Shown one piece after another: positions 562 through 30,964 of a DNA stretch of 43,663 bases. The translations under genes were made by a program, and so were the position numbers. Numbering within the stretch: position 1 is the stretch's first letter; the number at the start of each line of letters is the position of its first letter. Below the pieces are notes generated by a model. It saw nothing but the letters and a program-made list of their open reading frames with translations, made no database searches and was not told the origin of the DNA. This stretch comes from Candidatus Hecatellales archaeon B24 (GTDB lineage: Archaea > Thermoproteota > Bathyarchaeia > Hecatellales > Hecatellaceae): contig LUCC01000001.1 in assembly GCA_001593855.1 (NCBI GenBank), positions 1 to 43,663 of the forward strand. The letters are read 5' to 3'.

Positions 562-1218
562 TTAAAGGTTTAGGTTGGAGGGGGTTGAGCTGGACTCGTC
601 GGCCTCCACTGGAAGGCTGGGAAACTTTTCCTTGGTTTTCTGCTCAGCTAGGAGGCTGGCGGCCTTCAGTATTTCCGCGGCTTCCCCGCTTAAAGGTTGA
701 AGGTTCTGCTCGTCTAGGGGGGAGGCTGTCCCGAACTCTGTGAGGAGGCTGCCCAGGGATCTGTCAACTTCTCCAAGCTGGTAGGATACGTCTGGGAGGA
801 CTTTTTCAAGCCGTCCCTTCAAGGATTTCAGCAGTTTTGACACGGGAGCCATGGCTGCTGCTGTGTCACCGAACTCCCGGATGGTTTCAAGGCGTAGGGC
901 TGCCTGCTCTAGGGCTAACTGGCTTCCCAGAATTATTCTAACCATCTTCCTGATTTCCGAGCATTCGTTAGCGTAAATTTTAGCTCTGCTCTCATCTCCA
1001 GTTGAGTAGGCGCCCATACATTTTTCTAGGTACTCTTTATCTCTATGCTCAAGTTTGCTGAGGAACTCGCTCAGCCTATCCCTTATGGAGTTAAGCTTGT
1101 AAATGGACTCTTCAACCCTGTGTTTCAGCGGAGGTTTCCTTGCGAAAACACCTGAAATCTTTTCTCCTAGACGGCTGGTTAGAGGCTCCTCTCTATCCCA
1201 GCCTTTAATCTTCTTCAA
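562..1218 (-). CDS. ESCRT-III / Snf7-family protein (CdvB-like)
   Basis: 218-aa all-helical protein. The heptad-rich core (KLNSIRDRLSEFLSKLEHRDKEYLEKC...AKIYANECSEIRKM...LEQAALRLETI) has Snf7/Vps24-like spacing, followed by an acidic Pro-containing tail. Recognised by eye only. TTG start. Confidence 0.5.
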   Translation of the reverse strand: MKKIKGWDREEPLTSRLGEKISGVFARKPPLKHRVEESIYKLNSIRDRLSEFLSKLEHRDKEYLEKCMGAYSTGDESRAKIYANECSEIRKMVRIILGSQLALEQAALRLETIREFGDTAAAMAPVSKLLKSLKGRLEKVLPDVSYQLGEVDRSLGSLLTEFGTASPLDEQNLQPLSGEAAEILKAASLLAEQKTKEKFPSLPVEADESSSTPSNLNL

Positions 1219-2086: not shown

Positions 2087-2437
2087 ATGCCTTTCGGAAT
2101 GGAGCCTAAAATACGAAGGGAAACCTTAAGCAGGCAGGGAAGAACCTTCACCGTTTACCTCTTAGAATTAGAAAACGCCGTCGTCAGCTTTTTCTTCGAA
2201 GAGGAAAAGTTTAGGCTTGGAACCTTGGCTCTAGCTCTTCCAAGAACCCTCCAGCCTCCAGGCCTTGGAAGCTCAAGCATTCTCCTAGGCCATAAAAACA
2301 TTAACATAGCAAGAATTCTCGCTGAATACCTGTCTTCAAGGTATGGTAAGCTCTCTTTAGCCTCCGTTTTCCTCCAAAAGGAAGCAGATTTTGAGGGAGC
2401 GAGAAACCTTCTGGAATTGGCTAAAACCTTGAAATAA
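2087..2437 (+). CDS. Hypothetical small protein
   Basis: The track ORF 1961..2437 overlaps the nth start, so I trimmed it to the first ATG (2087) downstream of nth. Its composition looks more protein-like than the antisense ORF 2155..2472. No family recognised. Confidence 0.4.
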   Translation: MPFGMEPKIRRETLSRQGRTFTVYLLELENAVVSFFFEEEKFRLGTLALALPRTLQPPGLGSSSILLGHKNINIARILAEYLSSRYGKLSLASVFLQKEADFEGARNLLELAKTLK

Positions 2438-2458
2438 GACTTTAAAACGTTTATTTTT

Positions 2459-3022
2459 ATGGGGTTAACCATCCAATTTTTTGGAATCCGAAAAGAGGGC
2501 CCTCCGATAGCAAAGTTTAAAGAATACGGAACTGTATCCCTATTGGGAGCTTCTTTGGATGAAAGCCTGAAAAGCCTTAAAGACGTTCAAAACTGGATTA
2601 AAACCGTTTATAATGACCCGATAGCAAAAATACTAATAGAAAACAGCAATTTAACAGAAATACAGCTTGAAACGCTCTTAATTGACGTTTTATCCGATTA
2701 TTTTACAGATAAAGAGATAAAAATCGAGGAAAAAGCTAAATTACGCATTAAAGGGGAAATTAGCAAAGGAGCGTTCAACAGAATTTTAAAACAGGCGAAA
2801 AGAAACATAATACACTCAATTTACACCCTAATCCTACTTCAATACCTTGGATTAATAAGCCTGACAACCCTCAGAAAATACCTAGAAATCCCGGAAAAAA
2901 TAAAAGAATACATGGAAGCCTTAAAAACTGCAAAAGAAAAAGAAGAGGCTGAATTTCTAAGAGAAGAGCTGAAAAAACTCCTAACAACCCTTGCAGACCA
3001 CAAAAACATTAAAAAAGAATAG
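2459..3022 (+). CDS. Hypothetical protein encoded by a low-GC segment; possible sigma-region-4/Tfx-like HTH
   Basis: 187-aa K/E/I/L-rich ORF with no competing frame. The segment LRIKGEISKGAFNRILKQAKRNI weakly resembles a sigma-r4/Tfx-type recognition helix. The DNA is clearly more AT-rich than neighbouring genes. Confidence 0.5.
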   Translation: MGLTIQFFGIRKEGPPIAKFKEYGTVSLLGASLDESLKSLKDVQNWIKTVYNDPIAKILIENSNLTEIQLETLLIDVLSDYFTDKEIKIEEKAKLRIKGEISKGAFNRILKQAKRNIIHSIYTLILLQYLGLISLTTLRKYLEIPEKIKEYMEALKTAKEKEEAEFLREELKKLLTTLADHKNIKKE

Positions 3023-3352
3023 TGTGACGTCACATGAACTGTGATATCACGTAATACGCTGTGACCTGTAACGTGATATCACCATTAAAGCCCATTAGAA
3101 CTAAAAACAAGCTTAAAAAGCCTTATTTAGCCAGAAAAGAAAGCTTTAGAAAAATATCACCTTATGATATAGCAGCTGTGATATCACAACATTTAAATTG
3201 TTAAAAAGGATAAAATAAGATTTAGAGGCGGATTAAAAGCTTGTTTCGGGGTTTAATTGCATGTGAGGTGTGACGTCACGTGATTTCTGTGAGGTGCACC
3301 GTGATGTCTCATGTGATTCTTTTGGGAGGGTGACATCATGCTTGATATCACA
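3023..3352. repeat. Array of GTGAYRTCAC palindromes in three clusters separated by AT-rich spacers
   Basis: Perfect 10-bp palindromes: GTGACGTCAC at 3024 and 3270, GTGATATCAC at 3041, 3073 and 3178. The copies at 3023 and 3177 extend to the 12-bp form TGTGAYRTCACA. Degenerate copies start at 3301, 3330 and 3343, with half sites at 3061, 3154, 3263, 3289 and 3313. Confidence 0.9.
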
Positions 3353-4057
3353 TTAGCGTCAATAGTTTTATCCTTGACAAGTCTGGCAGCGGTAGCCTAC
3401 CTGTATATTGCCTACAAGGGACGCCAGACCCTCGACCTAAAAGGGTTTAACGACCTTTTTCAGGCTTCAACCATGCATTTCATAAGCCGACTGCGCGGGG
3501 TTGAGAGCCGCGTGGAGGAGGCCGTGAAGAAAGCAGAGGCAGTGGCGTCAAAAATTGACTTCCTCGACCGCAATTTAGAGGAACGCGATTTCTCGCTTAG
3601 CACCTTGGCAGGCAGCCTTAAAACTTTGATGGAGGCGCAGGTTAAGTTTTCAAGGGCACTACGGGATTTTCAGGGAAAGCTTCTGCAGGTGGATGGGCGG
3701 CTTAACTCTGTTGAGGCAGCTGTTAAAGGTTTAAAGAAGCCTTCACCGCGTACGCCAACTAGGCCGGTGTTTCCCAAGCCTCCCAGCCCCGTCCAAGGGG
3801 AAGTCTCCTTTACAAATTTAAATCCCACCGAGATGGAAGTTTTACGCTTGCTTTACGTCAGCGGGCCTAAGACTGCCTCCGAGGTCAGAGAAGTCATCGG
3901 CCGTAGCCGGGAACATACGGCCAGGCTTATGAAGAAGCTTTACTTGGAAGGTTATGTTGAACGGGACACGGAGGCAATTCCCTTCACCTATAAACTGAGC
4001 GAGAAAATAAAGAAAAGCTTTGAGTTTTCCGTTAAGAGCCGGAGGGAAGCCGAGTAG
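3338..4057 (+). CDS. Membrane-anchored coiled-coil protein with C-terminal MarR/TrmB-like winged helix
   Basis: 239 aa. N-terminal hydrophobic helix ITLASIVLSLTSLAAVAYLYIAY, a heptad-rich middle, a Pro-rich linker (PSPRTPTRPVFPKPPSP), and a C-terminal wHTH-like segment NPTEMEVLRLLYVSGPKTASEVREVIGRSREHTARLMKKLYLEGYVER. GGGAGGGTGA Shine-Dalgarno-like sequence lies before the ATG. Confidence 0.65.
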   Translation: MLDITLASIVLSLTSLAAVAYLYIAYKGRQTLDLKGFNDLFQASTMHFISRLRGVESRVEEAVKKAEAVASKIDFLDRNLEERDFSLSTLAGSLKTLMEAQVKFSRALRDFQGKLLQVDGRLNSVEAAVKGLKKPSPRTPTRPVFPKPPSPVQGEVSFTNLNPTEMEVLRLLYVSGPKTASEVREVIGRSREHTARLMKKLYLEGYVERDTEAIPFTYKLSEKIKKSFEFSVKSRREAE

Positions 4058-4059
4058 CT

Positions 4060-4482
4060 TCAGCGGCCTTCAATCACTGCCTCCACGTTAAGCTTATACT
4101 TTAACATGTTAGAGGGCCCTCTCCTTACGAGAAGCCCTTTATCACAGTATCGGCCTAGATAGGTTGACACCGTGCTGAGGCTTATGGGCTCCTTGAATTT
4201 CTCTTCGTAGGCCAGTTGAACATCTGAGGATGAAAACCATGTTAAGGGGAATTTTTCCCTTATAAGCTCAATTATTTTTTTGAATTTTGGTTTGGGAGGC
4301 TGGTAGATTTCTCCAGCGGCTTTGAAGGCCTCAGCTTTTTCAGGTCCTGACATCATTTCCACAAGGTCGATAAACTGGATTACTTTGTCTCGGCTGATTG
4401 GATGAGTAATTGAAAATGTGTAGTGGTTACCTCTGTCGTCTTCTATTTCGACTTTAACCTTTCGGACAACCAATTCGGACAA
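4060..4482 (-). CDS. Small hypothetical protein with probable C-terminal winged helix
   Basis: 140 aa. The C-terminal segment LSTVSTYLGRYCDKGLLVRRGPSNMLKYKL looks like a wHTH recognition helix plus wing. TTG start with an in-frame stop immediately upstream. Transcribed divergently from orc1 across the origin. Confidence 0.5.
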   Translation of the reverse strand: MSELVVRKVKVEIEDDRGNHYTFSITHPISRDKVIQFIDLVEMMSGPEKAEAFKAAGEIYQPPKPKFKKIIELIREKFPLTWFSSSDVQLAYEEKFKEPISLSTVSTYLGRYCDKGLLVRRGPSNMLKYKLNVEAVIEGR

Positions 4483-4647
4483 CCATCATTTCAATCTTCA
4501 CTATACTATAAAGGATTTGTGAATGTGAAGCAATAAATAATAAACACGGCTTTATAAGTGAAATAGGCTATAAATATTACTCTTAGAGTTTTACAGCTTC
4601 ACATAAACTGTCGGGGCAAACTCCTTGATTTTCCTGCTTTCTGAGAG

Positions 4648-4670
4648 TTTCCAGTGGAAATGAAGGGGTT
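4648..4670 (+). promoter_or_regulatory. Origin recognition box ORB1
   Basis: TTTCCAGTGGAAATGAAGGGGTT: a CCAGTGGAAA dyad core followed by a G-string, as in Pyrococcus and Sulfolobus ORB elements. Confidence 0.7.
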
Positions 4671-4722
4671 AAAAGGGCTTTAATCTGTGAAGTAAAATAT
4701 TTCATTGAAATTATGCAGTGGA

Positions 4723-4749
4723 GGCCCCACCCCTCTGTTTCTACTGGAG
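4723..4749 (-). promoter_or_regulatory. Origin recognition box ORB2 (inverted relative to ORB1)
   Basis: The minus strand reads CTCCAGTAGAAACAGAGGGGTGGGGCC: a CCAnnAGAAAC core plus G-string, convergent with ORB1. Confidence 0.65.
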
Positions 4750-4872
4750 AAGAAAGCCTCCACAAACCGATTGCACAAATGATTTAGAATGATATATTTC
4801 AACTACAAGATTTTTGTCTGGCTTCCTTATAAGTCAAACTCTAAACTAGGGATGGGAGGCCTCTAGCCCCTC

Positions 4873-4890
4873 TAAAAAATAAAAGAAATT
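4873..4890 (+). promoter_or_regulatory. Candidate TATA/BRE-like A-rich box of the orc1/cdc6 promoter
   Basis: TAAAAAATAAAAGAAATT lies about 50-65 nt upstream of the GTG start at 4938. Based on position and composition only. Confidence 0.3.
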
Positions 4891-4903
4891 TAGTGGAGCC
4901 CTC

Positions 4904-4930
4904 TTTACACTGGAAACATTGGGGTCCCCC
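4904..4930 (+). promoter_or_regulatory. Origin recognition box ORB3
   Basis: TTTACACTGGAAACATTGGGGTCCCCC: an ACTGGAAAC core plus GGGGT G-string, ending 7 nt before the orc1 start codon. Confidence 0.6.
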
Positions 4931-4937
4931 TTCCTAG

Positions 4938-6155
4938 GTGCGAAAAAGATTGGTGGACAGGCTTGAAAGTCTCTTCGAAAGATATGTAAGCGAATCCTAT
5001 ATTTTCACTAACCGTGACGTTTTAAGCCATGATTTCATTCCAAGCCAGCTTCCTCACCGTGAAGGAGAAATTCTAAGGCTCGGATCTATTCTAGCTCCAT
5101 CTCTCAGAAAAATGAAATGTTCCAATGTTTTTATTTACGGTAAAACGGGAACAGGCAAAACGGCTGTTTCAAAATATGTTTTGTCAAGGCTCTCAAAAAA
5201 GAGTGAGGAAATTGGAGGCAATGTTAAAGTCTGTTACGTTAACTGCAGAGTTGCTGGAACCGAGTATAGAATCGCTGCCTCCATATGCTCTTTTCTGGGC
5301 GTTAACATCCCCTTCACAGGACTGTCAACAGCTGAAGTTTTGAACAGGTTCACCGTCAGAATTAGAGAAGTTAAAGCCCACCTCATCACCGTTTTAGACG
5401 AAATTGACGTGCTGGTTAAAGGGTATGGGGACAGACTTCTCTACGAGCTTACAAGAATAAACGAAAATCTTGGAGCAGGAAGAGTTTCCCTGATAGGAAT
5501 ATCCAACGACCTTTACTTCAAAGAACTTTTAGACCCAAGAGTTCTAAGCAGCCTAAGCGAGGAAGAAGTGGTTTTCAAACCTTACACTGCCAGCCAGCTT
5601 AAGGACATCCTGCTTCAAAGAGCGAAGCTTGCCTTCAAGCCTGGAGCCCTCACGGATTCAGCCTTAAACCTCTGCGCGGCTCTAGCTGCCTCCGAACATG
5701 GCGACGCTAGGAGAGCCCTAGACCTGCTAAGGATTGCCGGAGAGCTTGCGGAGAGAGATAACGCTGAAAAAGTTGAAGACCGCCACATAAAGGAGGCGCA
5801 GAAAAGAATAGAGCACGACCGAGTTTTCGAGGCTCTTTCATCACTTCCCCTCCACTCAAAAATAATTCTACACGTACTTTACTCCGCGGATAAGGCTGGA
5901 AAGAAAGGGGTGACCACAGGGGAACTCTACGACAAGTATCTCTCAACTTGCAGCCAGCTTGGAGTTGAAAACTTGACCTCCCGGCGTGTGGGTGGACTGC
6001 TTAACGAGCTTGACATGCTTGGAGTTGTAAACGCGCAAATAGTCAACCTCGGCAGGTATGGCAGAACCAAGCAGATTAAAATAAAGGTTCCCGCGAAAAT
6101 TCTTGAGAAGGCCTTCAAGGAAGACCTTTACCTTGGAAGCCTCTTTAACAGTTAA
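4938..6155 (+). CDS. cdc6: Orc1/Cdc6 replication initiator (AAA+ ATPase with C-terminal winged helix)
   Basis: 405 aa. Walker A GKTGTGKT, Walker B VLDEID, sensor region, and the DARRALDLL motif typical of Orc1/Cdc6, with a C-terminal wH (RRVGGLLNELDMLGVV). GTG start. Confidence 0.95.
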   Translation: MRKRLVDRLESLFERYVSESYIFTNRDVLSHDFIPSQLPHREGEILRLGSILAPSLRKMKCSNVFIYGKTGTGKTAVSKYVLSRLSKKSEEIGGNVKVCYVNCRVAGTEYRIAASICSFLGVNIPFTGLSTAEVLNRFTVRIREVKAHLITVLDEIDVLVKGYGDRLLYELTRINENLGAGRVSLIGISNDLYFKELLDPRVLSSLSEEEVVFKPYTASQLKDILLQRAKLAFKPGALTDSALNLCAALAASEHGDARRALDLLRIAGELAERDNAEKVEDRHIKEAQKRIEHDRVFEALSSLPLHSKIILHVLYSADKAGKKGVTTGELYDKYLSTCSQLGVENLTSRRVGGLLNELDMLGVVNAQIVNLGRYGRTKQIKIKVPAKILEKAFKEDLYLGSLFNS

Positions 6156-6774
6156 ACGCTCTGCCTCCTGCACGAAATAATTCTTTTCGGCGTTACGATG
6201 AGGTCCACCCGGCTGTCCCAGGCTTCAACAGGAACCCGGTCCACCAGTTGAAGCTCATGAACGGTTGTAACCACAAGGGCCTGCGGGGAGAGCCCCCTTA
6301 AAAGGCTGATTTCCCGATCCCCGTAGCCCCCTCCTTTTCCAAGCCGAAACCCCCTAAAATCAACAGCGACACATCCAGTGATTACCAGGTTAACCTTACG
6401 GAGGGCTTCTTGGGCTGCAGGAACGCCAAGCTGGAAGGCGCCCCTAATGGTTGAGGCATACCCCTCACGGCCTCGAACGCTTTCAGAGCTCAGTTGGAGG
6501 AAGCCTGCCTTAAGCCTTGGACTCGCCATTATAAGAGTTTTACCGTCGACCAACGCCAGCTGACGCAGGGGCTTCTGCGCCCGATCCGGGTTTGAGAAAA
6601 CAACAGCCGCTTTTTCCACACGTTCAGCCTCCTAACCCTTTCAGCCGCCTTCTCGGCGCCTTCAAAGTTTGGAATCCTCCCCCGGATAGGCAGAGGAAAC
6701 CGGGCTGCTCCCGCCTCTTCAAGCCGCCTCCAAACGGCTTCTCTAAGTTGCTGCTTTTCAAGTCTAGGGTTCAA
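6152..6774 (-). pseudogene. 5-formyltetrahydrofolate cyclo-ligase family (MTHFS-like) gene interrupted by a frameshift
   Basis: Two overlapping ORFs in different frames (6529..6774 and 6152..6619) together give one MTHFS-like protein (GRIPNFEGAEKAA ... GFRLGKGGGYGD ... VDLIVTP). The frames switch at the A5 run (T5 on the plus strand, 6611-6615). Confidence 0.7.
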
Positions 6775-11904: not shown

Positions 11905-12312
11905 GTGAAACCAGCATGCTTTAAAGCGTCCTCAGCGAAGGTTTATTTGAGGCTGAAAAGTTTGGGTGAAGACCTGAAGCGTATGGCTGAACTGCTCAAG
12001 ACCGGAGCCTCCATGTTGGAGGAGGCGTGCCCCCAATGCGGTTCCCCCCTCTTCAAGCTTACCTCCGGCGAAGTTTACTGTGCCAAATGCGACAGAAAGG
12101 TTCTAATAGTTAAGTCCGACGAGGAGGTGCCCTCAGCCTTAACTCCTATGGCGCTTTCAACCCTGGAGGAAACCTTAACCGTGAACCTTCAAAGACTTGA
12201 AAAGGCTGTTAGAGCTGAAACCAGCCCAGAAGCCCTGGAAGGCCTCCTGAAACTCGTAAACTCACATTTAGAGGCCCTAGAAAGAATCAGGCGTATAAGA
12301 AGGCAGAGCTAG
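11905..12312 (+). CDS. UPF0148 / Sjogren-scleroderma autoantigen-1-like zinc-ribbon protein
   Basis: MAELLKTGASMLEEACPQCGSPLFKLTSGEVYCAKCD is the characteristic N-terminal Zn-ribbon of this family. The true start may be the internal ATG at 11983. Confidence 0.6.
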   Translation: MKPACFKASSAKVYLRLKSLGEDLKRMAELLKTGASMLEEACPQCGSPLFKLTSGEVYCAKCDRKVLIVKSDEEVPSALTPMALSTLEETLTVNLQRLEKAVRAETSPEALEGLLKLVNSHLEALERIRRIRRQS

Positions 12313-14546
12313 TCTTCCTCTACGTAGCCAGCTTCAATCACCCTTCTAATTCTTTCAGCAAGCTTTTCTCCTACACCCTTAACCCTTGTAAGCTCCTTCC
12401 TGTCAGCCTTAAAGACTCCTTCAACAGAACCGAACTCCTTCAGAAGCCTCCTAGCAAGGGTTCGCTCGACACCTGGAAGCCCGGCGACAATGTACTCTTG
12501 AATTTCTCGGAGGGTTGGAGGCTTTCCCTCCCTTAAGGCGGGGTAAGCCTTCCCGGCAGCCTGCTCTCTTCTGGCCAAAAGAAGGATTACCCTGGCAGCG
12601 TCAGCAGGGTTTCTCACCCATATCACCGGGAGCTTGAAGTCGTAGAGGAGGCTTAGCATGGCGCCCAGTAAGGCTTGCGGCTGAACTCCCGCAGAGGCTT
12701 CTTCCCCCTCAACCAGCAGGAGGGCTCTGGGATACGTGGAAACAAGGCTTCGAGCCTGGCTGAAAAGCCTTCCATCCATGAGGCTTCGGGCGAAATCCTC
12801 CATCCGCTTACGTTCCACAGCCAGGTCTTGGGAGACCACGTAGTCGGCAACCTGGAGGCTTCTAAGCTCGATGCTGACTCCCAACCTTAGAAGCTCTCTG
12901 ACCACTTGGCTTCCCCCCTCACGATAGTCTACCAGCACCTTCAACTCCTCTCCTCCACCTGCCCTTCCAGTTTCAAGATAGAAATGGATGGTTTCCTGTT
13001 TAGGCTGAACGGCTTCCTCACGTTGAAGTTCGGTTATAGTCTTTCTCATCGCTTTCTCCCTGTGAACTCCAGCCCAGTAGTAGGCTTCGTCGCTGGTTCC
13101 CTCAGCCATGAAAATTACAACCTTGCCAGGCTGCCTCCTGCCAACTCTGCCCCGGCGCTGAACAAATCTAACCGCACTGGGGACATTATCATAGAAGACC
13201 ACCACGTCGGAAGCGGAGATGTCCAAGCCTTCCTCACCCACCTGGGTTGCCACCAGCACGTTGTAGACACCTTCTTTAAAGGCTTCTAAGGCTTCAACCT
13301 GCCTCCGCTGGCTTAACCCTTTATCCTCGCCTCTGCTGGCATGTCCCACAAGCCTTACCGCCCTAACGCCTTCAACGCCTTCAAGCTCTTCTTCGAGAAG
13401 CTTAGCGGTACTCCTGTAATTGGTGAAAACGATTATTCTCCTCGCACCTTCGGCTAGGAGGCTTCTTAAAACGCTGGGAAGCTTTTCAAGCTTAGGATGC
13501 TTAACCCCCCGGCTTAACCCTATAAGGGCAAAGTTTACAGCCTCAACGATTCTCCCATCGGAGAAAAGCATTTTAAGGCTTGTAGGAGGCCTACGGGAGG
13601 AAGCCTTATCCTTCAGCCTGGAAAAATATTCGTTGAAGGCTTCTAAGCCCTGCCCTTCCACTAGGGCTAAGCCCTGCCTAACCCTTTTAGCGTTTAAAGC
13701 TTCGCAGAGCAGCCTTAAGGCTTCCACGTTTCTCCCTTCAGCCGCCAGCATCCTTCTAAGCTGGCTTTCAGCTTCGGTTAGGGCTTTATAGCTTACCCTG
13801 CCTCCTCCCGGCAGGAGTTTACGCTCTTCAAGAAGCTTAATCTTCTCTTCCAAGTATTCCTTCAGGAGCAGTCTGACCTGCTTAAGGGCTCCTTCAAGCT
13901 TAACTTTAACCCATTCAACCTTCATCGCTTTAACGTAGGGTCTAACGTCCGGGCTTAGGTCTGTCCGCGCCTCCACGAATCTTATGGACAGGTTGCGTTT
14001 AACCTCTTCAATTTGCTCCCTAGTTGAGCCGGGGGAGGCTGTCAGGGCTAGGATAAGCGGGCTGCTGGAACGTTTAACGTACTGCTCGGCTAGGAAAACG
14101 TAGGAGTGGTTTCCAACAGCCCTATGCGCCTCGTCGAAAACCATTAAAACCACGTCTTCAAGCCTGAATCTTCCGGCTAGAACATCGTTTTCCATGGCTT
14201 GAGGCGTGGTGAAAACAATTTTGGCTTGGAGTTTTTCCCGCTTCTCCGGCGGGGTTTCACCTGTGAGGAGGGTGAAGTCTTCGGCTGGAAGCTTTAAGGT
14301 TTCCATGAAGTTTCTGTGGTGCTGGTGGGTTAGAGGCCTCGTAGGAGCTAGAACTACCACTTTTCCCTCCGGGTTTGCCTTAAGCCTTTCAGCGGCAGCC
14401 AGCATGGCTATAACGGTTTTACCCAGCCCCGTAGGCAAAACCACTAAGGTGTTCCCTTTAAGGCAGGTGGCAAGGATTTTCGCCTGGTAGAGGCGGAACT
14501 CTAAGGTTTCAGGCTTGACAAGCGGATGGGTGAAATACTGAGGCAT
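12309..14546 (-). CDS. hef: Hef: fork-structure helicase fused to an ERCC4/XPF-type nuclease (FANCM/XPF homologue)
   Basis: 745 aa. Helicase motifs PTGLGKT and DEAH, with SF2 C-terminal motifs. ERCC4 nuclease signature VADYVV...AVERKRMEDF and a terminal (HhH)2 (LPGVERTLARRLL...VKGVGEKLAERI). Confidence 0.9.
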   Translation of the reverse strand: MPQYFTHPLVKPETLEFRLYQAKILATCLKGNTLVVLPTGLGKTVIAMLAAAERLKANPEGKVVVLAPTRPLTHQHHRNFMETLKLPAEDFTLLTGETPPEKREKLQAKIVFTTPQAMENDVLAGRFRLEDVVLMVFDEAHRAVGNHSYVFLAEQYVKRSSSPLILALTASPGSTREQIEEVKRNLSIRFVEARTDLSPDVRPYVKAMKVEWVKVKLEGALKQVRLLLKEYLEEKIKLLEERKLLPGGGRVSYKALTEAESQLRRMLAAEGRNVEALRLLCEALNAKRVRQGLALVEGQGLEAFNEYFSRLKDKASSRRPPTSLKMLFSDGRIVEAVNFALIGLSRGVKHPKLEKLPSVLRSLLAEGARRIIVFTNYRSTAKLLEEELEGVEGVRAVRLVGHASRGEDKGLSQRRQVEALEAFKEGVYNVLVATQVGEEGLDISASDVVVFYDNVPSAVRFVQRRGRVGRRQPGKVVIFMAEGTSDEAYYWAGVHREKAMRKTITELQREEAVQPKQETIHFYLETGRAGGGEELKVLVDYREGGSQVVRELLRLGVSIELRSLQVADYVVSQDLAVERKRMEDFARSLMDGRLFSQARSLVSTYPRALLLVEGEEASAGVQPQALLGAMLSLLYDFKLPVIWVRNPADAARVILLLARREQAAGKAYPALREGKPPTLREIQEYIVAGLPGVERTLARRLLKEFGSVEGVFKADRKELTRVKGVGEKLAERIRRVIEAGYVEED

Positions 14547-14571
14547 GCTTCCAGCCTTACCATGATGAGGC

Positions 14572-17500
14572 CTATAGGAAGTCCGTTAGCTGGGCGGGCT
14601 TCCTTTTCTCCTCTCCTTCAGCCGAGAAGACGGCTCCTATTTCACTTTCCACGAGGATAACCCGCTGCTTGTAGTAGTCTTCTATCCCGTAGGCTTCAGC
14701 CAGCCACCTGGCAATTTTCAGATATTTCTCTACGGAGCCGCGGTAAACCGTTAAAGCCAGCTCGCCTCCGCAGCGGGGGCACCTTCCAACCAAAGGTATA
14801 CGCCTGAACCTCGCGTTGCAGCGTTTACAGCGGAAGGCTTGGGAGGCGAAAACCTTAAGGTTGCCTATGATGTCCCTCATGAGGTGGACGCCTAGAACCC
14901 GTTTGGCTACTTCCCTCACTTCGACACCTTCAATTTTACCCATAAGCTCCATCTGGCTTCTAAGCTTTTCAGCCATGGTTTTAAGCCTTTTATACGTGTT
15001 CTCCCTGACACCCTCGTTAATGTTTGAAACCTCGTGGGCGTACCTGTAGCCCTCATACTGGTCAGGCCTCCCCAGCCGCTGCATAACCATGCTTACCAGC
15101 GAAGCTACATGCTTAGGAGGAGGCTCCTCAAGGCTTCTAAGGTAAAACTCTAAGGGGTATCGGGCTGAAAGGTCTAAGCTCCAAACCTGGTCGTCTACTT
15201 CCAGCGGGTTTACCACGGGCTGAAGCAGCATAGGCGAGTCCATTAACCCTCCAATCTGGGCTGGAAGATACTGGCGGGAGAAGTTTAAGAGCACGTCTAA
15301 GGCAAGCATTACGGAGTCTTCATCGCCGTCGCAGTCCCTCCGCTTAGCTGAAATCCACAGAGGATGCGAATAGCATACGTTATGTTTGGTGAAGCCTATG
15401 ATGCGGCCTAAAACCCCGCATAGGGTGTGAGGTGAAAGCCCTACAATCAGGTGGCCTACCAGGTCTTCTCTCCCTGCAATCCTGTAAAACCTTGGAAGCC
15501 TGTAGAATCTTTCAAGCAGCTCGTCTAGGAAGCCTGCAACCTTAACCAGGAACTCCGCACACTTCTCAGAGACTACGACGTCCTGGACTTTAAGCTCGCA
15601 GGTTTGCTCCGGGCTTTCCAAGGGCTTTCCATCCATGTCAACGGTGTATCCCAGCTCTCTAAGCTTTTCCACGGAAACCCCTATCTCGGAAGGCTTGAAA
15701 TGGGTTAGAGGAGCATTGGTAGAGTCAAACCTTACAGTTCCATCCTTGAAAACGGTTAAGCCGAACTTGGCTCTTAGAATACCTTTTTCAACGGGTTCAG
15801 GAATCTTCGCCTCGTTCATTAAGCCTTTAACTCCCTTCACGGTCTCCGGAATGGATAGGCCAAGCCTCTTAGAAGCTCTTTCAAGCAGGCTTCCAAGGTT
15901 TACAGGCTGCCTGGCGTAGGCTGCAGCTTCAACCCCGCATTTAGGGCAGGTGGAAGCTTCAAGAGGCCTTAAACATTTCGGGCAGACCTTGACGGGAAGG
16001 GTTCTGCCTCCGCAGAGGGAGCATTGAGCGTCGAAGGTTTCAACCCCGCAGCCCGGGCATTTCCGCTTTGCAATTTCAACTTCAACAGGTTTTCCAGCGG
16101 CTTCCACCAAGTTACGCTGGAGACCTCCTGCAAGCCCTACGGGGAACAGCACGTTGACAGGAGGCCTCATACGCCTCTCCTTAGCCTTCTCAGGTCTTCC
16201 CATCCTTACGCCTACAAACCTCGCATACTTGTCTTTAACTTCGAAGCCTGCTAGGAGGCTTACAAGCTTTAGGGGGGTCTGGCCTCCATCTGCAATAGGC
16301 TCAGCTTCAACCCTCCCAATTCCAAGGCAGTAGGCCAGTGGGGCTGCATCCTGGCTTCCAATCAGAATTTTCCCGTGACCTACTAGGTGGGGAACGAGAA
16401 GTCTTTCCAGAAGGCTTTTCACCTGGCTGTTTTCCTGAAGGGTTATAGACTGGGCGAACCCGTCTGCCCATTCAATCCTTGCCTGAGCTATAAGCCCTCG
16501 AAGAACCAGGATTTCCTCTACCGTAAGGTTTCTCCAGAAGTAGGTGTAGGCCGGGTGGAGGGAAACCTTAAGGCTGGCTGAAAGCTTCAGGGCTTCCTCA
16601 GCGGTAGGCTGAAAGCTTAGAGGCTTCTCAAGGAAGGCTTCAAGCCTTCCACGGTTCACCCCTGCCCTCCTAGAAGCTTCCTCCAAGGATTCTCCGCAGG
16701 CTTCCTGAACGGCTTTGCCGAGTTCCCAAGCCCACCATTCCTCTACGAAGCTTGAAGGCACCAACGGCTTATCGTTTTCGTAGAACTCAGCGTAGGAGAC
16801 GAGGAGGTCGCCTAGGAAGAGGATTTTCCCTATTTCACCTTGAACCTTTAAGGCTTCTCCAGGGCTTCTAACCCTGATAACGCTGCCTGACTTAAGTTTT
16901 ACAATGGGAGGCTCGATGGTTTCAACAGCTCCAACGATTCCTCCTTTACCTGGAAGCTCCAGTTTAAGCTGGGTTCCAACGGCTATGAAGCCTTCTAGGA
17001 TGGCCATGGTTGCAGGGTGCACGCCTACGCTGGTAAGCCCTGTGTTCCGGGCACGCCCATACCTAAGCCTGAACCTACCCTCATACTTGGGGGCGGGAAA
17101 GGAGAAAACAGGCCTTCCGGCGATAATATCTTGGAGGTATCCGGCTTCATCTTCCTCAGCCTTCCCGGCAACCACGTTTTTAAGCCAGTCCCAGCCTGGA
17201 AGATTCAGGTCTTTAACAGCTTTCCAAACCTTGGAGGCTCTCCCAGCAATACCGTCGTTTACAACCCTGAGGGCTCCTCCTCGAAGCCCGTTGGTTTCCA
17301 CGCTTGGAATATCCCGGAAGGTTGAAACCTCTGTGGGGTCCGTCTTTATCCCGGTAACTTCGACGGGAAGGTTGCGGAGCACGTACTCCAGGTTTTCATC
17401 GCTTATATGATATTGGAAGCGTCCAACCTCCCGTTCGTAGAGGCGGAGTTCCTCCAAGAAGCGTCCAACCTCATCGTCGCCAGCCCTCCAAGCCTCAAGC

Positions 17501-18012
17501 CCCATGATACGCCTCACGTAGTCGCCCAGCACCACCACCAACGCCTGTTCTGTTCCACCAGCAGACCTCATGGGGCCTGCGAAGTAAATGGCGAGGTGCG
17601 GCCCCTTCCTAGGCTTCCTTTTCACGGTCACCCTTGCTATTCCATGAATGTGGGCTGCAGTCACACCGTCGGTCAGAATAGCTGTTCCCGTCCTAACAGC
17701 CTGCTCCAAAGCTTTTTCAGGTTCAAAGCTTCCGAAGGCTCCGTAAACCACTTCCTCAGCTATTTTGAAGGCTAGAAGGGTTGGGGGAAGCCTGCTTAAC
17801 TCCCTTATACGTTTTCCAACCTTTGGAGGCCCTACGGTGTGCTCAACCCTGTCAGCCAGGTCCCTTGAAATTCTAACCTCCTCGTGGGCTGAGGTTTTAG
17901 GGTCAAAGCCTCTAGACTTCGCTTCGTCAGCTAGCTTGAAAAGCCTTTCAAGCTCTCCTTCAAGGTCTTCAAAGTATTTTTGGTAGGCAGGGCTGGCTTT
18001 AACCTCTGCCAA
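14572..18012 (-). CDS. polC: DNA polymerase D (Pol II) large catalytic subunit DP2
   Basis: 1146 aa. Its length, multiple Cys4 zinc modules (CPGCG...CSLCG, CPKC...CPKCG, CKRCN...CPRCG) and conserved blocks are typical of DP2. No intein-sized insertion is apparent. Confidence 0.9.
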   Translation of the reverse strand: MAEVKASPAYQKYFEDLEGELERLFKLADEAKSRGFDPKTSAHEEVRISRDLADRVEHTVGPPKVGKRIRELSRLPPTLLAFKIAEEVVYGAFGSFEPEKALEQAVRTGTAILTDGVTAAHIHGIARVTVKRKPRKGPHLAIYFAGPMRSAGGTEQALVVVLGDYVRRIMGLEAWRAGDDEVGRFLEELRLYEREVGRFQYHISDENLEYVLRNLPVEVTGIKTDPTEVSTFRDIPSVETNGLRGGALRVVNDGIAGRASKVWKAVKDLNLPGWDWLKNVVAGKAEEDEAGYLQDIIAGRPVFSFPAPKYEGRFRLRYGRARNTGLTSVGVHPATMAILEGFIAVGTQLKLELPGKGGIVGAVETIEPPIVKLKSGSVIRVRSPGEALKVQGEIGKILFLGDLLVSYAEFYENDKPLVPSSFVEEWWAWELGKAVQEACGESLEEASRRAGVNRGRLEAFLEKPLSFQPTAEEALKLSASLKVSLHPAYTYFWRNLTVEEILVLRGLIAQARIEWADGFAQSITLQENSQVKSLLERLLVPHLVGHGKILIGSQDAAPLAYCLGIGRVEAEPIADGGQTPLKLVSLLAGFEVKDKYARFVGVRMGRPEKAKERRMRPPVNVLFPVGLAGGLQRNLVEAAGKPVEVEIAKRKCPGCGVETFDAQCSLCGGRTLPVKVCPKCLRPLEASTCPKCGVEAAAYARQPVNLGSLLERASKRLGLSIPETVKGVKGLMNEAKIPEPVEKGILRAKFGLTVFKDGTVRFDSTNAPLTHFKPSEIGVSVEKLRELGYTVDMDGKPLESPEQTCELKVQDVVVSEKCAEFLVKVAGFLDELLERFYRLPRFYRIAGREDLVGHLIVGLSPHTLCGVLGRIIGFTKHNVCYSHPLWISAKRRDCDGDEDSVMLALDVLLNFSRQYLPAQIGGLMDSPMLLQPVVNPLEVDDQVWSLDLSARYPLEFYLRSLEEPPPKHVASLVSMVMQRLGRPDQYEGYRYAHEVSNINEGVRENTYKRLKTMAEKLRSQMELMGKIEGVEVREVAKRVLGVHLMRDIIGNLKVFASQAFRCKRCNARFRRIPLVGRCPRCGGELALTVYRGSVEKYLKIARWLAEAYGIEDYYKQRVILVESEIGAVFSAEGEEKRKPAQLTDFL

Positions 18013-27261: not shown

Positions 27262-28326
27262 TTGAAGATTACAAGCCTGCCAGACCTCGCCAGGAAGCTT
27301 CCAAGCAGGGAAAGAAAGCTTTTCAAGAGAATCTTCCAGGTTGAGGAAGTTAGGGGAAAACTTAGAGTTCCTGAAGCCTTAAAACCTTGGGTTGAAGAAA
27401 AGTTTGGCAGCGTAAGCCTGGTTGAGAAACAGCGTGTTGTGAAGGTTACCAACAAGGTCACCTTGGAGGCAGCCTTCTTCAACCAGCTTAGAAGCAGAAG
27501 ACCTGTGGAGGCTTCGGGGAAAGCCTTAGAAAGCCTTCTAGAAGCCGGTGAATGTCTTTTCTGCAGGCCTGAAACGTTTACGGCAGAAGACGTTTTCGGC
27601 AGAATCCGTGGGAAACACGGGGTCACCGCAGCTAATATTGCCAAGTATGACTGCTGGCATGGCCTGGTAGTTTTCACAAGGCATAATCCGCTGGGCTACC
27701 GTCGTGAGGAGGTTTTAGACTGTCTAAGCTTAGCCTTCAAATGGTTTAGGCAGGTTAGAAAAGCCGACGGGAAAGCTGTTTTCCCCTTTCTGCTTTGGAA
27801 CTGCCTCTGGAGGAGCGGGGCCTCCATCGTTCACGGCCACCTCCAAATCGCCGTCAGCCGGAAGGTCTATCCTAAAATAGAATATCTGCGCCGGTGTGCC
27901 GCCCGCTACCAGGCGAAATACCGCTCAAACTATTTCCAAGACCTTTTCAAAGTTTACCGGGAGTTGGGGTTAACCTTCAAACGTGGAAGCGTTAGGGTTA
28001 TGGCAAGCTTAACGCCTGTGAAGGAGAAGGAAGTTATCCTGCTGGCTGATAAAGCCGACACCAGACTTTTCGAAGCCGTATACAGGGTTTTCAAGGTTTA
28101 CCGGAGGCTTGGAGTTTCCTCCTTCAACCTTTCCCTGGTGCCGCCTCCGATGGCTTCCGTAAGAGGCTGGCAGGGCTTCCCGGTTATAGCTCGAATGGTT
28201 GACAGGGGAAACCTTGAGGAGCGCACCTCCGACATGGGGGGAATGGAACTTTACGCGGCAAGCATAATAGCCTCAGACCCCTTCCAGCTGGCTGAAGAGC
28301 TGAAGAAAACCTTTAAAGCTTCATGA
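27262..28326 (+). CDS. Galactose-1-phosphate uridylyltransferase-like HIT-superfamily nucleotidyltransferase
   Basis: 354 aa. CLFCRPE (GalT-type CxxC zinc motif), NIAKYD, VFTRHN, and SGASIVHGHLQI (HxHxQ catalytic motif). Confidence 0.55.
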   Translation: MKITSLPDLARKLPSRERKLFKRIFQVEEVRGKLRVPEALKPWVEEKFGSVSLVEKQRVVKVTNKVTLEAAFFNQLRSRRPVEASGKALESLLEAGECLFCRPETFTAEDVFGRIRGKHGVTAANIAKYDCWHGLVVFTRHNPLGYRREEVLDCLSLAFKWFRQVRKADGKAVFPFLLWNCLWRSGASIVHGHLQIAVSRKVYPKIEYLRRCAARYQAKYRSNYFQDLFKVYRELGLTFKRGSVRVMASLTPVKEKEVILLADKADTRLFEAVYRVFKVYRRLGVSSFNLSLVPPPMASVRGWQGFPVIARMVDRGNLEERTSDMGGMELYAASIIASDPFQLAEELKKTFKAS

Positions 28327-28477
28327 AGCCGGGTTGGCTTCTCAAAAATACATAAAAATGGCTTTCTCCTCCATTAACTTAGGTATATTAGTAGGCTAAA
28401 TTTGAACAGGCAGGCTGGGCTCCAGCCTGGTTTGAAGCTTGCTGGTTAAGTTTTGCCTTTCCTCGGGGGAGGCTGAA

Positions 28478-29572
28478 ATGGGAGTATTTATGGTGGTTAC
28501 GCATGGCAGAAGCTCTCTTGACCTTTACAGTTTAAGGCTTTCACAATATCTGGATGTTCCAGCTCTCCACACAGACATATACCAAGAGCTCTCCAAGGTT
28601 TTCAATAGGTTTCTTCCTCCTTCAATCGTTGCTTTCACCTTGAAGTCTCTAAACTTTATTAGGAGGCTTAAGGCGACTCCCGGGGTGCCTCACCTTCCAA
28701 ACCATCATCTTGGAAGGTTCACCCGCCTCCTGAGGAAGCCTTTCATTATAACAGTTCACGACCTGATACGCTACTTGGATACGGTGGGATATCTCGGTTC
28801 GCCTTTAATCCGCAGACCTGGGAAATGGGATGCGCTAGGTTTCACTTTAGACTTTAAAGCCGTAAGAAAGGCTCTCAGGGTGATTGCCCCGTCAAACCAG
28901 ACCAAAAAAGACCTAGTAAAGCTTCTACGTGTTCCAGAATGGAAAATTAAGGTTATCCACCACGGTGTCGACCGGGTTTTCAAGCCAACCTTCAGTAAGC
29001 GTCCATGCGAGGAACCATACATCCTCTACGTTGGCTCAGAGCATCCTAGGAAAAACCTTAAAACACTGCTCAGAGCCTTCAGCCTGCTTAAAAAAGACTC
29101 AAGATACCGTAGGCTTAAGCTTGTTAAGGTTGGAAGGGCTGGAGGAGGAGAATGCGATTTCAGAGGAGAAACCATGAGAATGGTTAAAGCCTTAAAAATC
29201 GAAAATGACGTAGTTTTCACCGGCTGGTGTTCCTCGGAGGACCTGGCCAGCTACTACAGTCAGGCTGAGGTTTTCGCTTTCCCCTCCGTGTATGAAGGCT
29301 TCGGCTGGCCTCCCCTCGAGGCCATGGCCTGCGGATGCCCCGTGGTATCCTCCAACGCAAGCAGTATGCCGGAAATCCTCGGCGGCGCAGCCTTACTTGT
29401 GAACCCCTACGATGTTGAAGGTTGGAGGCAGGCTCTTGACAGGGTTTTAAGCAGCGACAGGCTGAGAAGCAGGCTTTCAGCCCTAGGAATGGGTAGGGCG
29501 AAAAATTTCACGTGGGAGAAAACTGCCAAGCAGACCTTAGAGGTCTACATGGAAGTTGAAAGGCTTCTCTGA
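28478..29572 (+). CDS. Glycosyltransferase, GT4 family (Glycos_transf_1)
   Basis: C-terminal E-x7-E region FPSVYEGFGWPPLEAMACGCPVVSSNASSMPEI. I chose the ATG at 28478, 6 nt after GGGGGAGG, over the track TTG at 28439. Confidence 0.85.
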   Translation: MGVFMVVTHGRSSLDLYSLRLSQYLDVPALHTDIYQELSKVFNRFLPPSIVAFTLKSLNFIRRLKATPGVPHLPNHHLGRFTRLLRKPFIITVHDLIRYLDTVGYLGSPLIRRPGKWDALGFTLDFKAVRKALRVIAPSNQTKKDLVKLLRVPEWKIKVIHHGVDRVFKPTFSKRPCEEPYILYVGSEHPRKNLKTLLRAFSLLKKDSRYRRLKLVKVGRAGGGECDFRGETMRMVKALKIENDVVFTGWCSSEDLASYYSQAEVFAFPSVYEGFGWPPLEAMACGCPVVSSNASSMPEILGGAALLVNPYDVEGWRQALDRVLSSDRLRSRLSALGMGRAKNFTWEKTAKQTLEVYMEVERLL

Positions 29573-30394: not shown

Positions 30395-30964
30395 TTAAGA
30401 GGTTAATCTCCCACAGAGCTTCACGAAGTTCTCCAAGACGAGGGGGCCGTCGTTTCCCTCTCCCACCTCAGGATGAAACTGGACGGCGAAGAAAGGCTTA
30501 AACCGGTGTTTCACAGCCTGAATTTTGCAGGTCTCCGAGCTGGCATAGTTTTCGAAGGGGCCTTTCAAGTCTAAAAGTTCGTAGTCATGGTTTTCATAGA
30601 CTAGAAGCTCGCTTCTACCCGGAGCCAGAGGATACTCCCGGGAAAACCTTATCCATGTTAAGCCTACCTCGCTTAGGCTGAGCCTTCTCATCCTACAGCC
30701 GTGGCAGTGGCCGAGGATTCTAAGCCCCAAACATATGGCGAGCACAGGGATTTCAGCAAGCCCGTAAAGCCTGCAATACCATTCCAAGTGTTCCCTCCTA
30801 GTTTTGCCAGGAATAATGCCTCCTGAAACGATGAGGCCTGCATAGGCCTTCAGGTTCAGGGTTTCCATGGGCTGTTTAACGTCGTAGGCCACGTTCAAGC
30901 CTTCCAGCACCTCTAAAAGCTCCTTTAAAGTTTCGCTTCTGTTGTTCAAAACCAAGATTTTCAC
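30395..30964 (-). CDS. Class I glutamine amidotransferase (GuaA-A/TrpG-like small subunit)
   Basis: 189 aa. Nucleophile elbow PVLAICLGLRIL and VQFHPEV His/Glu motif. The GTG start overlaps the aminotransferase stop (GTGA). Confidence 0.65.
   Translation of the reverse strand: MKILVLNNRSETLKELLEVLEGLNVAYDVKQPMETLNLKAYAGLIVSGGIIPGKTRREHLEWYCRLYGLAEIPVLAICLGLRILGHCHGCRMRRLSLSEVGLTWIRFSREYPLAPGRSELLVYENHDYELLDLKGPFENYASSETCKIQAVKHRFKPFFAVQFHPEVGEGNDGPLVLENFVKLCGRLTS

Follow-up and report, generated by a model that had tools for sequence, protein, structure and literature searches.

A conserved three-gene module beside oriC and orc1 in Bathyarchaeia, probably an undescribed origin-associated regulatory or tethering system

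The RacA/ram system of Bacillus is an origin-to-membrane anchor. In Staphylococcus aureus, origins are held at the membrane by RicO, a protein in which a DNA-binding domain with sequence specificity is joined to a membrane-binding helix (bioRxiv 10.64898/2026.03.06.710092). Among archaeal proteins, SegB has sites that cluster near segAB and forms foci that are biased to the cell periphery (PMC12284271), TrmBL1 and Tgr of the TrmB family recognise the TGM motif TATCAC-N5-GTGATA (PMC4158304), and the origin-associated haloarchaeal proteins OapABC (now ArvABC) drive extracellular vesicle formation (PMC10927574). The positioning, segregation and regulation of archaeal origins are largely unknown outside Sulfolobales and haloarchaea, and the Bathyarchaeia are abundant organisms whose cell biology has been little studied by experiment. 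Here we describe three small open reading frames (ORFs), named P1, P2 and P3, that lie beside the predicted replication origin (oriC) and orc1 of Candidatus Hecatellales archaeon B24 (Bathyarchaeia). The DNA analysed, referred to as the window, is a stretch of 43,663 nt of contig LUCC01000001.1 in assembly GCA_001593855.1, and the module spans positions 2516-4937 within it. The trio and its sequence motifs probably constitute an undescribed origin-associated regulatory or tethering system; literature searches found no published description of the P1-P2-P3 module.

A P1 profile was scanned over one genome per GTDB species, and a P1 relative was found to be encoded in 543 species genomes. From these, 80 species loci were retrieved (numbered with the prefix L), each covering ±7 kb around P1, and all ORFs were searched with hidden Markov models. 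All 80 loci were from Bathyarchaeia save one 4-kb contig filed in a Bacteroidetes bin. The canonical order, in which P1 and P2 are followed by convergent P3, oriC and orc1, was observed in 68 of the 80 loci, and 10 more were cut by contig ends but consistent with it. The two exceptions were L039, in which P3 was replaced, and L062, which held P1 only. Relatives at 65-70% protein identity, found on metagenome contigs, carried P1, the spacer, P2, reverse P3, oriC and orc1, and distant Bathyarchaeia at 36-51% identity exhibited the same module order among other flanking genes. In the metagenome-assembled genome (MAG) GCA_038858225.1, labelled Nitrososphaerales, the module lies between PolD DP2-PcrB-Elf1 and orc1-PolD DP1. 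The genes for PolD DP2, NAD synthase and an aminotransferase are found 10-28 kb away in the window, on the far side of orc1, indicating that the flanks were reshuffled while the module was kept at oriC. The closest homologues were from Candidatus Hecatellales/Hecatellaceae (Bathyarchaeia), and no paralogues of P1-P3 were found elsewhere in the 43.6-kb window. An original prediction for this DNA had proposed that the trio and a palindrome array form one unit tied to orc1 and oriC. This was borne out, since gene order and motifs co-occur beside orc1 in nearly all related genomes examined, the array in 78 of 78, despite the differing flanks. The module is thus very probably a functional unit linked to oriC. 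The features of the module and of the adjoining origin are as follows.

2516-2521, plus strand: TATA-like box TTTAAA of the P1 promoter, read from the sequence; a TTAAAA-type box occupies the same position 5' of the palindrome in other lineages.
2522-2539, unstranded: GAATACGGAACTGTATCC, an operator-like palindrome of type I, 3' of the TATA box and 5' of the P1 start; family consensus GTATACAAAANTGTATYC.
2543-3022, plus strand: P1, all-alpha, about 155-159 amino acids, fold unknown; alternative start TTG at 2555, original ORF call from 2459.
3024-3082, unstranded: site-A cluster, beginning 2 bp past the P1 stop; palindromes at 3024-3033, 3041-3050 and 3073-3082, half-site at 3061-3065.
3156-3187, unstranded: site B; half-site ATCAC at 3156-3160 and palindrome GTGATATCAC at 3178-3187, followed directly by ATTTAAAT.
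3192-3198, plus strand: second candidate P2 TATA box, TTTAAAT, read from the sequence.
3252-3257, plus strand: candidate TATA box TTTAAT of the P2 promoter, assigned from the TTAAAT box that lies about 14 nt 5' of site C in other lineages.
3270-3351, unstranded: site-C cluster, covering the starts of P2 transcription and translation; GTGACGTCAC at 3270, GTGAT at 3280, GTGATGTCTC at 3301, GTGAT at 3313, GTGACATCAT at 3330 and TTGATATCAC at 3342.
3338-4057, plus strand: P2; transmembrane anchor at about residues 4-26, helical coiled-coil region, Pro-rich linker and C-terminal winged helix-turn-helix (wHTH) of MarR/TrmB type at about residues 159-225.
4060-4482, minus strand: P3; beta-beta-alpha N-terminal domain, disordered linker and C-terminal wHTH (AlphaFold); alternative start at 4473.
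4483-4937: oriC, AT-rich, 455 bp, between P3 and orc1.
4496-4530, minus strand: P3 promoter; TATA box TTTATA at 4507-4512 (minus), GTGAAG at 4496-4501 (minus) and TTGTGAA/TGTGAAG at 4517-4530 (plus).
4597-4603 (minus) and 4686-4692 (plus): further TGTGAAG boxes, the second between origin recognition box 1 (ORB1) and inverted ORB2.
4648-4669 (plus), 4729-4748 (minus) and 4904-4925 (plus): ORB-like elements, from a repeat search that returned a direct family and inverted pairs.
4938-6155, plus strand: orc1/cdc6; Pfam matches to Cdc6_lid (9e-27), Cdc6_C (5e-26) and AAA_22.

The P1-P2 spacer, 315 bp long, carries the most conspicuous of the motif classes. Exact copies of the palindrome GTGAYRTCAC occur at 3024, 3041, 3073, 3178 and 3270 and nowhere else in the window. 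Only 0.02 copies are expected and five were reached in none of 100 shuffles, confirming that the array is highly non-random, as had been claimed. One-mismatch copies were observed at 3301, 3330 and 3342, and with these the array spans 3024-3351. GTGAY/RTCAC half-sites number 16 in a 320-bp span, compared with a window mean of 0.43. The array had been placed directly next to oriC; the actual distance is about 1.1-1.4 kb.

This layout is shared across lineages. Exact GTGAYRTCAC was found in the P1-P2 spacer in 78 of 78 loci at 3.67 copies per kb, a 46-fold excess over the 0.08 per kb seen outside it within the ±7 kb, and in 75 of the 78 a copy overlaps the P1 stop codon, with the TGA lying within GTGA. 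The order in the spacer is stereotyped: site A, site B, a TTAAAT box and site C. Lineage-wide, site A consists of the palindrome followed by AA and RTCAC and is placed at the P1 stop codon, site B is GTGAT-NN-palindrome located 150-170 bp 3' of site A, and site C has the form GTGATgtGTGAT...ATCAC-N6-ATCAC over the expected P2 transcription start. In the window, site C covers the GGAGG-type ribosome-binding site and the P2 ATG at 3338, and in 78 of 78 lineages the palindromes and half-site arrays overlie the P2 promoter. The spacing of half-sites also varies little across lineages, being 7 bp for direct repeats and 5 bp for convergent half-sites. For the 17-nt composite GTGATNTGTGATGTCAC, 63 of 120 exact metagenome matches had a P1 or P2 homologue no more than 700 bp away, and those non-module matches that were inspected resembled unrelated eukaryote-type inverted repeats; the composite site therefore marks the module. 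Measured from the P1 stop, further single GTGAYRTCAC-like sites recur at conserved offsets: about 590-650 bp past it, within the P2 coding region, in about 17 loci, and about 2.4 kb ahead of it in about 12.

An extra cluster of at least five half-sites per 120 bp was observed 5' of P1 in 65 of 73 loci, and in 23 loci it falls within the coding sequence (CDS) of an aminotransferase gene. This embedded cluster comprises 4-5 GTGAY half-sites in the region coding ...DVMSLITDKSRVII... (L016:~6360-6410, L025, L006 and L007), and the half-sites are kept even where the amino acids differ between lineages. The aminotransferase gene of the window (30961-32145), which is distant from P1, has one half-site in the homologous segment. 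Hecatellales lack a cluster 5' of P1 but have 15-18 half-sites in the spacer compared with a median of 11, suggesting that the window array is a lineage-specific concentration of a class-wide element. In other loci a CN-hydrolase gene precedes P1 (L005:5680-6000, L017, L022, L036 and L043), and the P1 promoter is then separated from a dense half-site cluster by about 350 bp of very AT-rich non-coding DNA; this stretch, absent from the window, had no Rfam match.

Two other explanations of the spacer were considered and dropped. A search for noncoding RNA with Rfam was empty at E ≤ 1 in 2200-5100 and at gathering score in the window and seven loci. The fold z-score of -3.5 for 3023-3337 arises because the palindromes themselves fold, and the hairpin is not kept in other lineages. 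GTGAY half-sites are about 4-fold rarer than the mean 5-mer outside the array, yet under a Markov model they are not among the most depleted words, so no claim of avoidance is made.

P2 had been described as a membrane-anchored wHTH protein, and both elements were again predicted within one polypeptide. Its wHTH, at residues 159-219, matched Pfam PF01047 MarR at 29.8 bits (cut-off 24.6) and PF01978 TrmB at 28.8 bits (cut-off 25.6), and a search of the Protein Data Bank (PDB) returned the MarR protein TM0710 (E = 0.002); coiled-coil-type Pfam matches were weak. The N-terminal helix is hydrophobic (mean Kyte-Doolittle value of 2.03), and a hydrophobic N-terminal helix followed by basic residues was present in 76 of 77 orthologues, predicting an N-out, C-in topology with a cytoplasmic wHTH. 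The anchor comes without a sensing ectodomain. In place of the canonical architecture, the wHTH forms the C-terminal 80 amino acids behind the transmembrane helix, a helical region of about 100 amino acids and the Pro-rich linker, and there is no effector domain. Most of the 120 best database matches of P2 were close to origin-linked orthologues, and two divergent ones that were checked were also origin-linked, consistent with P2 being an orthologous family; the idea that P2 belongs to a sprawling paralogous family was ruled out by this origin linkage. The original prediction had recognised no family for any of the three proteins, a statement that no longer applies to P2 but still applies to P1 and P3, neither of which has a Pfam or NCBIfam match. 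The MarR/TrmB match, two further motif classes and a HerA/NurA-like pair in about one-third of lineages are additions to that prediction.

P1 had been introduced as a low-GC ORF with a possible helix-turn-helix (HTH). Its GC content of 0.335, against 0.50 in the window, was verified, whereas the HTH found no backing in profile or fold searches. Pfam and NCBIfam gave no match for the family (Pfam on 32 members), the PDB profile search was also empty, and the AlphaFold model (pLDDT of 83, 7 helices) had no significant Foldseek match in PDB or BFVD. Candidate identities as a sigma-70 region 4 or UPF0251-like HTH gained nothing from these Pfam, PDB profile and Foldseek searches, and a likeness to DnaA domain IV, raised by weak Foldseek matches (E of 0.7-5), was rejected because the probability from hhalign with the P1 family was 0.4%. 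Database homologues are 156-160 amino acids long and the conserved palindrome at 2522-2539 lies inside the ORF 2459-3022, so that the true start is TTG 2543 or TTG 2555. A shorter subfamily of about 130 amino acids, with a member in the Nitrososphaerales-labelled MAG, emerged from a full HMMER search of 1.84 billion representatives. The P1 gene and spacer have a GC content of 0.335-0.375. At third codon positions P1 has a GC fraction of 0.34 and an A fraction of 0.48, compared with 0.46-0.59 and 0.18-0.34 in 12 other window genes. As P1 lies below its locus in GC in 95% of 73 lineages, the low GC is a family trait, and the composition suggests either an unusual codon usage or selection, acting on the DNA itself, for an A-rich tract between the motif arrays.

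The second motif class is the type I palindrome of the P1 promoter, GTATAC-N6-GTATYC. The window contains one match, at 2522-2539. In 79 of 80 loci the palindrome is preceded by a TTAAAA-type TATA box and followed by the P1 start, compared with 32 matches in the remaining 1.01 Mb, and it was also found in the Nitrososphaerales-labelled MAG. A promoter and terminator scan was run with models for bacteria, which are uninformative on the archaeal window.

P3 is a protein of 140 amino acids, convergent with P2, and its C-terminal wHTH, which had been predicted, was corroborated by AlphaFold and Foldseek as a single domain. The lack of a Pfam or NCBIfam match extends to the Cdt1 type. Foldseek returned generic wHTH matches only (Fur, MecI/BlaI, RosR, ArsR and AspA, with E of 2e-3 to 2e-2), and the helix PISLSTVSTYL.R is nearly invariant among homologues. 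At 4461-4485, TTCGGACAACCA is perfectly duplicated in tandem with an offset of 13 nt, which gives the 5' end of P3 two possible TTG starts, 4482 and 4473, and a database homologue with 99% identity is annotated from TTG 4473. The P3 promoter does lie inside oriC as had been stated, with its TATA box at 4507-4512 in the P3-orc1 intergenic region. By sequence this region has the attributes of an Orc1/Cdc6-ORB origin, namely an orc1 gene with the expected domains and adjoining ORBs in inverted orientation, and it is regarded as a predicted origin.

The third motif class, TGTGAA, occupies this origin. In oriC of all 68 P3-bearing lineages it occurs at 7.1 per kb, against a background of 0.6 per kb, with 2-9 boxes per origin (median 6). 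An unbiased count revealed TTGTGAA as the most widely shared 7-mer of the P3-orc1 intergenic region (68 of 68 loci, 16-fold enriched), ahead of the ORB G-string. One box stands at a fixed position just past the G-string of ORB1, between the inverted ORBs, and the TTCAC-TATA-GTGAA inverted pair around the P3 TATA box is kept in other lineages. The sole origin without P3, that of L039, has ORBs but no TGTGAA in 723 bp; there the place of P3 is taken by an ORF on the orc1 strand that is unrelated to it, has about 115-138 amino acids and contains an HTH-like stretch, ETAKILGISIRRVYFYL (L039:8569-8985). Elsewhere in the window, four TTGTGAA copies lie within 2 kb, at 27437 (plus), 27673 (minus), 28540 (minus) and 29397 (plus), within or near an unannotated 354-amino-acid ORF and a glycosyltransferase gene; this group at 27437-29403 may be due to chance or may be a further binding region.

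Some lineages carry additional genes in the module. In 27 of the 80 lineages, P2 and P3 are separated by two genes on the P3 strand, one for a divergent HerA-superfamily ATPase and one for a NurA-like protein (e.g., L006:7727-10289; range L015-L088). The HerA-like protein matched Pfam DUF87 and had weak NCBIfam matches to HerA and CedD far under the cut-offs. The P3, NurA-like and HerA-like genes probably form an operon with P3 first. The pair is absent from the window, and fragments in four more lineages (L042, L058, L063 and L078) point to repeated loss, indicating that it is not essential to the module. Two loci of one MAG (HHBFW-2_201803_bins_186), L022 and L030, each hold a complete module with orc1, one with the HerA/NurA pair and one without, so that either the genome has two origins or the bin is mixed. 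In L094 (5399-5998), L095 and L096 (1270-1851), a gene with an XRE-type HTH and CBS is located directly 5' of P2, overlapping or abutting it, and the GTGAY array is then found before this gene. Hmmsearch still finds P1 in those loci, and the XRE-CBS gene is therefore an insertion between P1 and P2 rather than a replacement of P1. In L094 and L095 P1 is inverted, yet it keeps its palindrome and 3'-end half-sites. Three independent assemblies of a related Hecatellales population (L001-L003) break in the same ORF about 300 bp 5' of P1, which hints at a repeat or a strain-variable junction.

In the wider window, a Snf7/ESCRT-III-type gene (562-1218, minus strand) lies 1.3 kb 5' of the module, and a Hef-like helicase-nuclease gene together with PolD DP2 (12309-18012, minus strand) lies 6-12 kb 3' of orc1. 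The rarest 5-mers of the window contain GATC and GTAC (5-11 occurrences compared with a mean of 85), compatible with restriction-site avoidance. A defence system was also considered and set aside, as PADLOC returned generic wHTH and HerA matches only.

The reading that we favour, with about as much confidence as doubt, is that positions 2516-4937 are the Hecatellales version of an ancient origin-flanking gene module of Bathyarchaeia and that this module would act as a self-regulating, origin-linked DNA-binding unit. Underlying it are the conserved gene order, the linkage to oriC and orc1, three motif classes held at fixed positions relative to TATA boxes, the P1 stop codon and ORBs, and the P2 anchor. 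It is likely that the three motif classes are bound by P1, P2 and P3, whichever pairs with which. Nearly as likely is that P3 binds TGTGAA, a link favoured by the one natural co-loss in L039. Whether P2 is the GTGAY binder is an even call. This pairing is favoured because every lineage has site C over the P2 start, because the arrays follow the P2 operon upon gene insertion, because the half-site is identical to the TrmB-family TGM half-site, and because a flexible tether could accommodate the varied half-site geometry. P1 as the GTGAY binder appears doubtful.

We propose that each protein would repress its own promoter, P1 via GTATAC-N6-GTATYC, P2 via the GTGAY arrays including the 10-bp palindromes, and P3 via TGTGAA. 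P2 might dimerise in the membrane through its N-terminal transmembrane helix, leaving two wHTH domains hanging on a coiled coil and flexible Pro-rich linker, and by occupying some 16 half-sites 1.1-1.4 kb from oriC it could hold origin-proximal DNA at the membrane. Such tethering of the origin region by P2 is possible, though we lean against it. P3, on boxes flanking its own TATA box and beside ORB1, might link its expression with Orc1 occupancy or with the firing of the origin, and this coupling would extend to the downstream HerA/NurA-like pair in many lineages. The position of P3 boxes next to ORB1 hints at cross-talk involving Orc1 and the two divergent promoters, those of P3 and orc1; a direct action of the module on initiation is, like the tether, a tentative proposal. 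Taken as a whole, these steps would describe an archaeal origin-organising system in which P2 anchors the GTGAY arrays to the membrane, P3 modulates Orc1-dependent initiation and P1, with a new fold, sets the level of the system, a scheme that we put forward as rather speculative. It would imply, just as speculatively, direct origin-membrane attachment as in the classical replicon model, with three proteins and three motifs serving a class that has no origin-linked ParA or SegA gene.

Several points weigh against the favoured reading. Profile and fold searches detect no DNA-binding fold in P1. Which motif is paired with which protein was deduced from promoter proximity and a single natural co-loss, and P1 stays a candidate GTGAY binder because site A follows the inverted P1 3' end in L094 and because L062 lacks a P2 gene yet keeps GTGAY sites. 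At half-site spacings of 5 or 7 bp, simultaneous occupancy by two wHTH domains would be difficult. A motor ATPase linked to the module was not found in the 80 loci or the window. The motif scans span ±7 kb per genome, and regulon sites may lie farther off. Finally, origin adjacency has misled before, as for haloarchaeal OapABC (PMC10927574).

The same haloarchaeal case, where proteins adjoin the origin but act in vesicle formation, also bears on the strongest alternative, that the module is an ordinary cluster of autoregulated transcription factors whose synteny with oriC has no mechanistic meaning and whose arrays are elaborate autoregulatory operators. We consider this possible but not probable. 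Each of the three motif classes is found at the promoter of one of the three genes, which is a hallmark of autoregulation; P2 has a MarR/TrmB-type wHTH; and the XRE-HTH and CBS sensor gene that precedes P2 in some lineages suggests metabolic signalling. Such a cluster would not, however, account for an oriC/orc1 linkage that outlasts extensive flank reshuffling across hundreds of species and into the Nitrososphaerales-labelled MAG, nor for TGTGAA boxes that are interleaved with ORBs at a fixed position beyond the P3 TATA box. The roughly 16-20 GTGAY half-sites, including a cluster inside a neighbouring CDS, are far above what autorepression needs, and the P2 membrane anchor is conserved without a sensing ectodomain. 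A partition system without ParA, in which the GTGAY arrays would be a centromere bound by P2 (or P1) and driven by membrane attachment or a HerA/FtsK-superfamily ATPase, is improbable. The arrays bracket the promoter of the putative binder like parC/ParR or SegB sites and are centromere-like in sequence; SegB sites likewise lie near segAB, with peripheral SegB foci (PMC12284271). The HerA-like ATPase and NurA-like protein occur in 27 of 80 lineages, and the archaeal centromere protein AspA is among the many wHTH proteins matched by P3. However, no gene for ParA, SegA, ParM or TubZ, and no ORF with KGGxGK[ST], was found within ±7 kb of P1 in the 80 loci or in the window, where Pfam scans of 27 ORFs gave the same outcome, the HerA/NurA pair is repeatedly lost and missing from the window, and the similarity of P3 to AspA is generic (E of about 1e-2). 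The origin tether or partition role that had been suggested is plausible for a membrane-anchored P2, with no motor ATPase found nearby.

The original prediction had further raised an accessory initiator with iterons, comparable to WhiP at Sulfolobus oriC3, and the remnant of an integrated replicon. In the former, the AT-rich P1 region and array would be fired by P1 or P3 as a second origin or accessory site. The P1 gene and spacer are indeed AT-rich, with a bias reaching synonymous sites, repeated putative binding sites are present, and P3 boxes lie inside oriC. Yet ORBs are missing from 2440-4060, Pfam and NCBIfam revealed no relatives of Orc1, Cdt1/WhiP or Rep among P1-P3, the hhalign comparison with DnaA domain IV was negative, and P1 is a conserved protein-coding gene. 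As the array elements sit on promoters, transcription-start positions and the P1 stop codon, the iteron reading of the array is unsupported; a weaker version survives for P3, with TGTGAA inside oriC. Overall, this explanation is slightly more improbable than a partition system. An integrated plasmid or virus bringing in low-GC DNA, DNA-binding genes and repeats would fit the low GC of P1 and the spacer, and three small DNA-binding genes with repeats do resemble plasmid maintenance regions. This idea is effectively refuted, as the module is class-wide and single-copy, with P1 relatives in the 543 species genomes and the same origin-linked place in the loci examined, and the low P1 GC is a family trait. 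No integrase and no direct repeats flanking the module were found in the window, in line with the observation made at the outset that these and a ParA/SegA-type ATPase are lacking; nor were there relatives of P1-P3 on IMG/VR viral contigs, or tRNA or other Rfam matches in the window.

The locus thus offers testable parts, comprising three protein families (one without a known fold), three motifs, the P2 anchor and an extra class of oriC repeat. If P2 does tether the origin, or P3 does modulate Orc1, the module would represent a new archaeal solution to origin organisation that parallels RicO. Even if the module is only regulatory, the trio and its motifs reliably mark the primary origin in Bathyarchaeia MAGs and provide three new families for annotation.

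Among the described systems, RicO resembles P2 in joining a DNA-binding and a membrane element in one protein with sites near the origin, here, by prediction, a wHTH and a transmembrane helix, with candidate GTGAY sites 1.1-1.4 kb from oriC. If P2 is the binder, the holding of the origin at the membrane would correspond to the function of RicO in S. aureus, and is hinted at for SegB. The likeness is one of architecture, not of sequence comparison. RicO has a C-terminal amphipathic helix, whereas P2 has an N-terminal transmembrane anchor followed by a coiled coil, the host is an archaeon, and the predicted P2 sites overlap P2's own promoter. With TrmBL1 and Tgr the module shares the half-site, since GTGAT/ATCAC is the TGM half-site, and, as with archaeal repressors, its operators overlap the TATA box and the start of transcription. 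In the module, however, the half-sites form 10-bp palindromes and 7-bp direct repeats instead of TATCAC-N5-GTGATA, and P2 is membrane-anchored and has neither the MarR dimerisation helices nor the TrmB sugar-binding domain.

SegAB, ParR/parC and AspA likewise combine a binder with repeat arrays beside its own gene and autoregulation, the last of which is presumed for the module. They differ in that the module has no SegA, ParA or ParM partner; the P2 and P3 wHTH domains are not specifically SegB-like, and the likeness to AspA is generic. WhiP resembles P3 with its TGTGAA boxes as a winged-helix gene beside an origin with non-ORB repeats, but the origin described here also has canonical ORBs and orc1, P3 has 140 amino acids and one wHTH with no Cdt1-type tandem match, and there is no sign that P3 replaces Orc1. 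OapABC (ArvABC) is likewise a lineage-wide conserved cluster beside the main origin and orc1, but it encodes a small GTPase with DUF2073 and DUF2072 proteins, domains that P1-P3 lack, and is not homologous. Autoregulated wHTH factors, origin-proximal anchors and accessory origin repeats are known concepts; what is new is the combination of the P1 and P3 families, a membrane-anchored MarR/TrmB architecture and a three-motif layout around an archaeal oriC.

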